From an uncultured Veillonellaceae bacterium (GTDB lineage: Bacteria; Bacillota; Negativicutes; JARBTT01): DNA of 64,000 nt. A model generated the notes under the pieces. That model was not told the DNA's origin. It searched no databases and saw only the letters and a program-made list of their open reading frames with translations. The position numbers were made by a program, and so were the translations under genes. Shown in pieces: positions 48,813-49,895 of this stretch. Positions within the stretch are counted from its first letter, which is position 1; each line of letters begins with the position of its first letter. The stretch is from assembly GCA_963805085.1 (NCBI GenBank), contig CAWDTA010000002.1, positions 1,280,001-1,344,000 on the forward strand, given 5' to 3'.

Positions 48813-49106
48813 ATGGAAAATGTTTATCGTATAGCGATCCATTATAATGAGAATAACGGTTATATTGAATATGCAATTGATGCAAAGACTGCTAAGGTTG
48901 TACTAGACTCAGAAGAGAAAAAGGCAACAGTAGAAGCATATTTAGCGGAGGATCATGAAATAAATGTGCCACACGAAACCTTGATGGATTTTTCCAACCA
49001 ACTTGTAAAACCATTAAGTAGTCTAGAAGACTTAAAATTATCTCTTACAAGATTATGGGGGATTACTGGGGTATATGTTGATTGGAGTAGACCAGTTAAT
49101 GTATAA
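48813..49106 (+). CDS. Hypothetical protein (97 aa)
   Basis: AAGGAG RBS before ATG 48813 and a terminator at 49110-49142. Confidence 0.75.
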   Translation: MENVYRIAIHYNENNGYIEYAIDAKTAKVVLDSEEKKATVEAYLAEDHEINVPHETLMDFSNQLVKPLSSLEDLKLSLTRLWGITGVYVDWSRPVNV

Positions 49107-49166
49107 GTTAAAAAGATCTGTTCATAGGAACGGATCTTTTTTAGTTATATAGGAAAATAGGGCAAG

Positions 49167-49534
49167 TTGTTCACATAGATATTAACTTATCCACATTTTT
49201 ATCCACAAAACCCATGTTCTTGTGGATAAAAATGTGCAAATCCAAAGAAATCATAGGGGGAAAACAAACAGACTGTGCATAAATATGGGGATAGGTGTGG
49301 AAAAATAGAAATATAGTTTACAATTTACTGAATTTTAAAGTTGTTAGTTGCTATAATAAAAATATATTGAAAGCGAACGATCTCATATGACTATTTATCT
49401 AGTTACATAATAATAACTTATCCACATTTTTATCCACAAATTTGATAAATGTGTTGATAAGTAGGTGGAAAAGTCATATTTATGTTAGTAAAATAAATAA
49501 AAATGTGAATAAACCAGTAAATCCTTGTGGAAAA
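49167..49534. promoter_or_regulatory. DnaA-box cluster in two architecture-identical units
   Basis: TTWTNCACA matches at 49187, 49199, 49221r, 49274r, 49296r, 49418, 49430, 49504r and 49526r. One-mismatch boxes at 49167, 49233r, 49452r and 49464r. Confidence 0.85.
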
Positions 49535-49693
49535 GTAGAATTTTTTATTATTTATGGTTTTGATTATTGTTCACTTGGTAACGGTAATCAGGCCTGATAA
49601 GAAGAAAAAATAACCATCAAAATATTTATTGACAATATATTAAGATAGTGGTATTATAATATTTGTTGGTTGTGCGAAACGATTAATAAACAT

Positions 49694-49770
49694 GACTCTG
49701 TAGCTCAGCTGGATAGAGTGTTTGACTACGAATCAAAAGGTCGCAGGTTCGACTCCTGCCAGGGTCACCA
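49694..49770 (+). tRNA. tRNA-Arg (ACG)
   Basis: GACTCTG / CAGGGTC acceptor, tttga-ctacgaa-tcaaa anticodon arm and CCA. Promoter TTGACA(49629)-17-TATTAT; terminator at 49782-49813. Confidence 0.97.
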
Positions 49771-49895
49771 TTTTGAAATTTAAGGCTTTACGGCTTATCG
49801 TAAAGCTTTTTTTGTCTTTTAATCACTAGAATATTCTAGCGAATCATGAATAGTATAATATGCAATTTAGTTGATCACAGGGAGGGTTTTTAATC

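Follow-up and report, generated by a model that had tools for sequence, protein, structure and literature searches.

The closest described counterparts of the locus examined here are the DnaA-box clusters that lie outside oriC in Escherichia coli and Bacillus subtilis. To our knowledge, E. coli (datA, DARS1 and DARS2) is the one organism in which control of initiation from non-origin sites has been worked out, apart from a partial account in B. subtilis, for which six DnaA-box clusters (DBCs) outside oriC were reportedly described by Ishikawa in 2007. The present locus lies in a 64-kb stretch of the genome of an uncultured Veillonellaceae bacterium (G000:C2:1280001–1344000; hereafter the window, the positions of which are used for all features) and consists of a tandemly doubled array of DnaA boxes between a gene for a 97-amino-acid (97-aa) protein and a gene for tRNA-Arg. 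On balance, this array is probably a conserved origin-proximal DnaA-box cluster distinct from oriC that draws off DnaA or alters its activity, as do the B. subtilis DBCs or datA and DARS.

In the excerpts available of the B. subtilis study (PMC3245932), deletion of the six non-oriC DBCs led to early initiation, some DBCs controlled neighbouring genes, a role of DBCs in the organization of the chromosome around oriC was raised as a possibility and Okumura et al. predicted that bacteria lacking SeqA and Hda would commonly have origin-proximal DBCs. The excerpted account of E. coli datA (PMC10950094) describes a site of DnaA-ATP hydrolysis that lies downstream of the glyVXY operon and is traversed by its read-through transcripts. 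The cores of DARS1 and DARS2 comprise three DnaA boxes, two pointing one way and one the opposite way, with the opposed boxes 5 bp apart, and a model of a head-to-head DnaA dimer spans 19–26 bp of DNA (PMC6868365, likewise available in part).

The box array

DnaA boxes were searched for as TTATCCACA with at most one mismatch unless stated otherwise, and with at most two mismatches for a wider count. The 64-kb window contains 35 boxes, compared with 19.8 ± 4.7 in shuffled sequences, and ten of these, five of them perfect, fall within 49187–49534 (49187+, 49199+, 49221-, 49274-, 49296-, 49418+, 49430+, 49452-, 49504- and 49526-). The whole 4.21-Mb assembly has 1610 boxes (0.38–0.40 per kb), of which 56 are perfect, the cluster accounting for five of the latter. 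The ten boxes in 348 bp compare with an expectation of 0.14 (Poisson probability of ten or more, ∼5e-16). A genome-wide density scan, proposed as a check when the cluster was initially annotated, places the densest 400-bp stretch of the assembly here, with ten boxes from C2:1329187, compared with seven and five in the oriC flanks of dnaA; in terms of the density criterion used for DBCs, the local box density is far above the genome background. When two mismatches are allowed, 49160–49575 contains 13 boxes, as the initial annotation had estimated, where the window rate of 4.6 per kb predicts ∼1.9. The parts of the cluster are as follows.

49167..49175, plus strand: weak DnaA box TTGTTCACA with two mismatches, kept in the relatives G019 and G004; the block TGTTCACATA is invariant
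49187..49229: core triad of unit 1, with a plus-strand box (49187–49195), 3 bp, a plus-strand box (49199–49207), 13 bp and a minus-strand box (49221–49229), all perfect
49274..49282, 49286..49294 and 49296..49304, minus strand: distal boxes of unit 1, with one, two and one mismatches, respectively
49305..49417: AT-rich linker between the units, 21% G+C, in agreement with the initial description
49418..49460: core triad of unit 2, with a plus-strand box (49418–49426), 3 bp, a plus-strand box (49430–49438), 13 bp and a minus-strand box (49452–49460; TGTTGATAA, one mismatch)
49464..49472, 49504..49512 and 49526..49534, minus strand: distal boxes of unit 2, with two, one and one mismatches, respectively

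The two units are offset by 231 bp at first and by 230 bp farther along. Six pairs of boxes had been listed at this offset; five are evident, whereas the pair 49233/49464 is weak, with three and two mismatches. Units 1 and 2 are identical at 43/45 box positions versus 41/99 non-box positions (∼0.31 is expected by chance). Together with the retention of the geometry in at least 18 families (see below), this upholds the earlier view that box positions have been retained while spacers diverged, under selection on the architecture.

Together with the sequence on either side, boxes 2 and 3 make up a 17–20-bp palindrome, with a folding energy of −22.6 kcal/mol as RNA, and such symmetry would also be expected of an operator for some other dimeric protein, or of an RNA hairpin, that merely resembles DnaA boxes. 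We consider this explanation very improbable, because the 9-mers match the DnaA consensus exactly and are found in direct repeat and singly, as distal boxes whose positions vary, neither of which a palindromic operator would account for, because the spacer or loop sequence is not kept across families, because no Rfam family matches, and because the hairpin lacks a U-tract and the fold of unit 2 is no better than 4/200 shuffles. An Rfam scan over the locus found the tRNA alone, the weak microRNA rows being hairpin noise from the inverted boxes.

The double unit is seen in G000 and G001, which belong to the same genus, and in G019 and G004, whose DnaA proteins are 89–90% identical to that of G000; all other families have a single unit. 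In all double-unit genomes unit 1 has a common 13-bp spacer and unit 2 a common TGTTGATAAGT; the doubling therefore predates the G000, G001, G019 and G004 lineages. In a four-way alignment, with G000, G019 and G004 counted as three lineages and with columns that are not independent, 75/90 box columns are invariant in these three versus 104/379 non-box columns. Most of the AT-rich linker has been lost from G004, and in G019 it has diverged, so that it is not under selection. The ancestral form, found throughout the class, is the single unit, and only a small clade has the tandem doubling; both points go beyond the initial annotation, as do the assignment of the organism to Negativicutes and the finding that the 97-aa gene is the most constant neighbour of the cluster. 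The closest named record, a metagenome-assembled genome (MAG) of Massilibacillus sp. (L085), has a 98%-identical 97-aa protein and two triads 231 bp apart.

Conservation and neighbouring genes in Negativicutes

The 97-aa gene was located in 119 of 151 genomes of the class, and flanking DNA was taken for 118 of these, one partial match at a contig end being left out. The 400 bp downstream of the gene contain 333 boxes in 46.5 kb (7.17 per kb); the corresponding figures are 13 in 46.8 kb (0.28 per kb) for the 400 bp upstream and 12 in 33.2 kb (0.36 per kb) inside the gene. Three or more boxes upstream of the gene were found at 0/118 loci. Three or more boxes within 400 bp, at most 1.3 kb downstream of the gene, are present in 59/118 genomes and in 21 of the 25 gene-bearing families; at three of the cluster-negative loci less than 400 bp of downstream DNA was available. 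When 40 relatives were searched at the DNA level, other families too proved to have box arrays ahead of tRNA-Arg(ACG), always in the order forward, forward, reverse and further reverse.

The core found just downstream of the 97-aa gene in many relatives consists of a box, 3 bp, a box, 13 bp and an inverted box. A reverse box starts exactly 22 bp after a forward box in 40 loci, with a further forward box at −12 in 37 of the 40, and no box offset other than +22 recurs more than six times. The 40 loci with this triad represent 18 families, and the window has two copies of it. A consensus built from one sequence per family (18 families), TTATCCACA-aAn-tTATcCACA-aAa..cct..aa.-TGTGGATAA, retains the boxes and a few flanking A residues, while the spacers are variable. 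At least 18 families show clear purifying selection on the geometry of the boxes. Family f3 (L226–L233 and L239–L242) has a different and longer array of ∼9–10 boxes over ∼390 bp without the exact +22 triad; it sits downstream of the 97-aa gene and is followed by a nagA-like gene in place of the tRNA.

The features that flank the cluster in the window are listed below, together with a promoter-like element in the linker.

48813..49106, plus strand: 97-aa orphan gene (P0001), a translated open reading frame (ORF) and the steadiest upstream neighbour of the cluster in the class
49110..49143, plus strand: intrinsic terminator of the 97-aa gene, a 14-bp stem followed by UUUUUU (−21.1 kcal/mol; z-score −7.6 against shuffles)
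49349..49357, plus strand: perfect extended −10 element TGCTATAAT within the AT-rich linker, directed at unit 2 and the tRNA
49629..49657, plus strand: sigma-70-type promoter of the tRNA, TTGACA, 17 bp and TATTAT, with TG ahead of the second hexamer (11/12 matches)
49694..49770, plus strand: tRNA-Arg with anticodon ACG (ARAGORN; Rfam RF00005, 68.1 bits), transcribed away from the cluster
49782..49809, plus strand: terminator of the tRNA gene

The tRNA promoter is kept in G001, G019 and G004, and a spacer of 95 bp separates its −35 hexamer from the last box. The extended −10 element is restricted to G000 and G001, the stretch being deleted or diverged in G004 and G019. Farther upstream lie zwf, pgl, gnd, tRNA-Cys, a Y-family polymerase gene and a DUF3846 gene, with DUF2600 and DUF441 genes on the opposite strand; the segment 44133–45589, just upstream of the locus, holds the lone tRNA-Cys and then the gene for the Y-family (ImpB/MucB/SamB type) DNA polymerase. 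A soil metatranscriptome (X1, the single RNA run found) contains 0.07 of the sampled words.

At the 59 cluster loci the next gene downstream is tRNA-Arg(ACG) in 26, tRNA-Arg(CCT) in ten and a protein gene in 23, the last including, by eye, nagA-like, azlC-like, peptidase, rubrerythrin-like, aldehyde dehydrogenase and integrase genes among others. The expectation that relatives would share the position beside tRNA-Arg thus holds for 36/59 loci and fails for the other 23, and it is the 97-aa gene that is the steadiest neighbour. In G029 (contig C155; L166) a tyrosine-recombinase-like gene is found ∼570–1500 bp past the 97-aa gene, where tRNA-Arg is missing after the cluster, which suggests that a mobile element integrated at or near the tRNA site.

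The gap between the 97-aa gene and the cluster widens to 0.7–0.9 kb in G019 and family f23, where the insert in f23 is a GGDEF-type gene (read from its translation), and to 8.5 kb in G004; in all of these the cluster stays beside the tRNA despite the DNA inserted next to the 97-aa gene. In G010 and G031 the cluster and the tRNA are present and the 97-aa gene was not found with the query used. Co-dependence of the gene and the cluster was considered and rejected: the gene occurs without the cluster throughout families f12 (22/22) and f14 (12/12), and the cluster without a found gene in G010 and G031. Most of f17 and f24 likewise have the gene without the cluster. Because the cluster persists when either neighbour is lost, the box array itself is the conserved and selected element; this independence of its neighbours favours a function in its own right and speaks against a strict need for the 97-aa protein.

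The 97-aa family is single-copy, with an invariant C-terminal VDWSRPV motif, and its homologues are named only from Negativicutes (Anaerosinus/Massilibacillus, Selenobaculum, Selenomonadaceae and Sporomusa). The protein belongs to no Pfam or NCBIfam family. An AlphaFold2 (AF2) model based on a 45-sequence alignment is a confident α/β structure, with a predicted local distance difference test (pLDDT) value of 94.1 and a predicted template-modelling score (pTM) of 0.83. Fold comparisons gave a best Foldseek E value of 0.39, with no clear match in the PDB, a best VIA-align Z score of 4.4 among 48,161 chains, to RWD-like domains of kinetochore proteins and within the noise range, and a best ESM Atlas score of 0.75, which offers no lead. 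A complex prediction of DnaA with the 97-aa protein (score 0.00, mark 0.32) speaks neither for nor against binding. The protein is therefore described here as a class-restricted orphan whose tie to the cluster may be one of synteny only.

DnaA acts as a transcription factor at sda, ywlC and yydA in B. subtilis, and the array might accordingly be read as an operator through which DnaA ties tRNA-Arg, or another downstream gene, to the replication status. In every case a gene on the same strand follows the cluster, and in 36/59 loci this gene is tRNA-Arg; in some genomes the last box is ∼70–100 bp from the 5' end of the tRNA, near the −35 region; the promoter region of a histidine-kinase gene contains another triad of this genome, at C2:416706; and some B. 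subtilis DBCs regulate their neighbours, according to the excerpts of PMC3245932. We nevertheless regard this role as rather unlikely. The downstream gene varies, as the 26 ACG, ten CCT and 23 protein-gene loci attest, and the distance of the nearest box to the tRNA ranges from 72 to 172 bp among relatives, the boxes in the window stopping 95 bp short of the −35 hexamer. Control of this one copy of tRNA-Arg(ACG) would change little, because the genome has further copies at C5:429034 (identical over 81 matched bases) and C3:353490 (88% identical), and ten boxes far exceed what an operator needs.

Position relative to the origin and other triads

The genome has one clear rpmH–dnaA–dnaN origin: dnaA lies at C2:822881–823366 on the minus strand, with dnaN downstream and an rnpA-like ORF and an rpmH-like start upstream (names read from the translations). 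The oriC flanks of dnaA carry the same TTATCCACA boxes as the cluster, which is 506 kb away on one replichore; as initially stated, none of dnaA, dnaN or rnpA is present within the window. Cumulative GC skew on C2 has its minimum at ∼800–820 kb, and the skew is ∼+0.2 from 840 kb to 2.1 Mb, including the 1.26–1.38 Mb region around the cluster. A switch at the cluster, which the initial annotation had held out as grounds for renaming it oriC, is absent.

The distance from dnaA was measured in the ten genomes in which dnaA and the cluster share a contig; these genomes are kin and not independent samples.

G000: 506 kb from dnaA, 12% of the genome
G019: 304 kb from dnaA, 11% of the genome
G018: 391 kb from dnaA, 10% of the genome
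G004: 408 kb from dnaA, about 10% of the genome
G032: 305 kb from dnaA, 8.6% of the genome
G128: 379 kb from dnaA, about 8.5% of the genome
G060: 298 kb from dnaA, 6.2% of the genome
G091: 148 kb from dnaA, 5.6% of the genome
G072: 167 kb from dnaA, 4.0% of the genome
G124: 105 kb from dnaA, 2.0% of the genome

The cluster is thus origin-proximal in 10/10 genomes, 104–506 kb or 2–12% of the genome from dnaA. In 10/11 genomes (G040 added) it lies on the upstream side of dnaA with the 97-aa gene transcribed away from the origin, the exception being G032. B. subtilis DBCs and datA have been described with the same kind of placement.

At the threshold of one mismatch the triad occurs three times in the genome, namely in the two units of the cluster and at C2:416706, and the same pattern read backwards is absent from the genome even at three mismatches. 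The copy at C2:416706 is part of a second cluster (C2:416618–416748) of six boxes in a near-symmetric forward–forward–reverse–reverse arrangement, ∼406 kb from dnaA on the opposite side of the origin; the gene whose promoter region it occupies is on the minus strand and would encode a DegS/NarX-type histidine kinase (read from the translation). A third cluster, at C2:1862736–1862938 (L003), has six boxes at no more than one mismatch, including an inverted tandem pair; a short ORF on the plus strand, with its start near C2:1863010, follows downstream.

Two origin-proximal sites on either side of oriC would also suit a chromosome anchor, in which bound DnaA bridges the cluster to oriC or to the C2:416706 triad and leaves the pool of active DnaA unchanged. 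The origin-proximal position in all ten genomes measured, the second triad across the origin, ∼406 kb from dnaA, and the role in organization around oriC raised for DBCs (PMC3245932, in the part available) are in keeping with such an anchor, but two sites per genome are a thin basis for one and the cluster has been lost in many families; we think it improbable.

An IUPAC scan for the triad was made over a species-level genome collection, and 80 of at least 100 matching stretches, in no taxonomic order, were examined, so the counts are no measure of the true spread of the triad. Of these 80, 23 represent the Negativicutes locus (18 with tRNA-Arg beside the match and 12 with the 97-aa gene, overlapping sets), and 13 have the triad at most 1.5 kb from dnaA (L027, L038, L040, L047, L048, L052, L059, L061, L066, L074, L092, L094 and L101). 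Pelosinus, Propionispora and Sporomusa are among the records with the Negativicutes locus. The 13 dnaA-linked loci come mostly from other classes of Bacillota and comprise Clostridia, Eubacteriales-type genomes, a Halanaerobiales MAG and a Bdellovibrionales MAG. Since the triad is present beside dnaA in these 13 loci, its geometry is not special to Negativicutes; it would be a general DnaA-assembly module, and its use in the flanks of dnaA supports DnaA as its reader. The DnaA of this organism has the domain IV motif, whose residues R445, D446, H447, T449 and H452 are invariant in 21 Negativicutes DnaA sequences and which we take to be the DNA-reading motif of the protein.

The triad beside dnaA in 13/80 loci, the larger number of consensus boxes than at oriC and the linker of 21% G+C could together point to a cryptic, secondary or displaced replication origin, which the initial annotation had entertained. 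The remaining evidence makes this extremely doubtful. With dnaA and the skew switch 506 kb away and the skew unchanged at the cluster, the cluster is not the origin; the skew stays at ∼+0.2 throughout C2:840 kb to 2.1 Mb, and neither dnaA nor dnaN is adjacent. In terms of the DnaA-trio motif, the sole run of three TA[GA] triplets (TAATAATAA) precedes unit 2, and no such run comes after either box pair. No unwinding element can be named from the sequence at the cluster, the linker is not conserved, and the ancestral form would be a single ∼43-bp triad between a stop codon and a tRNA promoter.

Comparison with known systems and possible function

Like the B. subtilis DBCs, the cluster is an intergenic region densely set with consensus TTATCCACA boxes, belongs to a Bacillota genome that has no known SeqA or Hda, lies near but outside oriC and is kept in relatives. 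It differs in being homologous to none of the six named loci, none of which is known to adjoin tRNA-Arg, and in lying between a terminator and a tRNA promoter and not in a divergent promoter. It further differs in occupying one syntenic locus in at least 18–21 families with a fixed three-box geometry. With datA it shares the character of a non-origin cluster of high-affinity boxes, hundreds of kilobases from oriC and immediately adjacent to a tRNA gene. The two are not homologous in sequence, and the tRNA here is transcribed away from the cluster, so that control by read-through, as the excerpts of PMC10950094 describe it, is not applicable as such. The triad has exactly the composition reported for the DARS core in the available part of PMC6868365, two direct boxes and one opposite box, and no IHF or Fis region is evident at the cluster. 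The arrays that flank dnaA at the oriC of Bacillota share the same triad, at most 1.5 kb from dnaA in 13/80 loci examined, whereas the cluster has no nearby dnaA or dnaN, no skew switch, no nameable unwinding element and no DnaA-trio array after a box pair.

The cluster therefore has the sequence-level properties of a DBC and lacks those of an origin; it is not homologous to datA, DARS or the named DBCs, and may work like one of them. The initial proposal of a non-origin cluster of the datA/DARS/DBC kind is compatible with everything computed, including the 506 kb that separate it from dnaA, the origin-proximal position in 10/10 genomes and the selected geometry. Our literature search, which did not extend to subscription journals and supplements, found no description of DnaA-box clusters in Negativicutes and nothing relevant that links DnaA or DnaA boxes to tRNA-Arg.

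A plausible course of events can be outlined for a cluster that draws off DnaA or alters its activity. The building block, ancestral to much of Negativicutes, would be two direct boxes 3 bp apart and an inverted box after 13 bp, with two to four looser inverted boxes behind them; its tandem doubling would have created the strongest predicted DnaA-binding site in the genome. DnaA would take the perfect boxes and build a short oligomer on each triad. The direct boxes, with starts 12 bp apart, are spaced much as in the head-to-tail DnaA contacts of origins, and the inverted box, 22 bp away centre to centre (about two helical turns), would set a third DnaA facing the pair. As it lies within 2–12% of the genome from oriC, the cluster is copied soon after initiation. 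The early-copied cluster could then reduce the DnaA available to oriC after initiation, or change the activity of DnaA, and so help to time initiation. Occupancy may depend on growth rate through the adjacent tRNA promoter, and supercoiling from that promoter might conceivably act on the cluster upstream of it. We infer DnaA binding, titration or a change of nucleotide state, and an effect on replication from the nucleotide sequence and its conservation.

The separation of the opposed boxes, 22 bp centre to centre, would fit the 19–26 bp dimer model in the available part of PMC6868365; this is a lead, provided that the facing ends are alike. A bolder reading would make the triad the Bacillota counterpart of the DARS core, a DNA machine that makes two DnaA molecules face each other and changes their nucleotide state. 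It would then be an ancient cell-cycle element of diderm Firmicutes, with the 97-aa protein as a possible accessory factor and the tRNA promoter tying its activity to growth rate. We hold this extended version to be quite unlikely.

Several observations weigh against assigning the cluster a function of the DBC or datA/DARS kind. The cluster was not found beside the 97-aa gene in 59/118 genomes, including all of f12 (22/22) and f14 (12/12), and in five genomes of f12, f14, f17 and f24 the triad was found nowhere at up to two mismatches; whatever the cluster does, much of the class must therefore be able to do without it. For datA an IHF site is required, whereas WATCARNNNNTTR, the E. coli IHF consensus, which may not suit this class, has no match in 49160–49640 and 12 elsewhere in the window. 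The opposed boxes are 13 bp apart in all 40 triad loci (a count built on the +22 offset), compared with the 5 bp given for DARS in the excerpts of PMC6868365. With no IHF-type site and 13 instead of 5 bp, the datA or DARS mechanism is not simply transferable. The tRNA promoter 95 bp downstream leaves room for a transcriptional role, and the constant position and orientation relative to oriC may be mere inherited gene order.

Given the prediction of Okumura et al., as excerpted, a cluster of this kind is unsurprising in principle, yet the present one is unusually clean and strongly conserved. It offers a short and well-defined DnaA-assembly module of fixed spacing, strongly conserved, a natural series that runs from the single unit through the tandem double to loss in whole families, and a place in the genome that lends itself to deletion; the triad geometry could also help to locate sites of this kind in further phyla. 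Should the cluster leave replication unaffected, it would clearly exemplify a conserved regulatory role of DnaA at a tRNA locus. If it does control initiation, origin-proximal sinks or converters of DnaA would be general in Bacillota, as that prediction, in the part available, holds.

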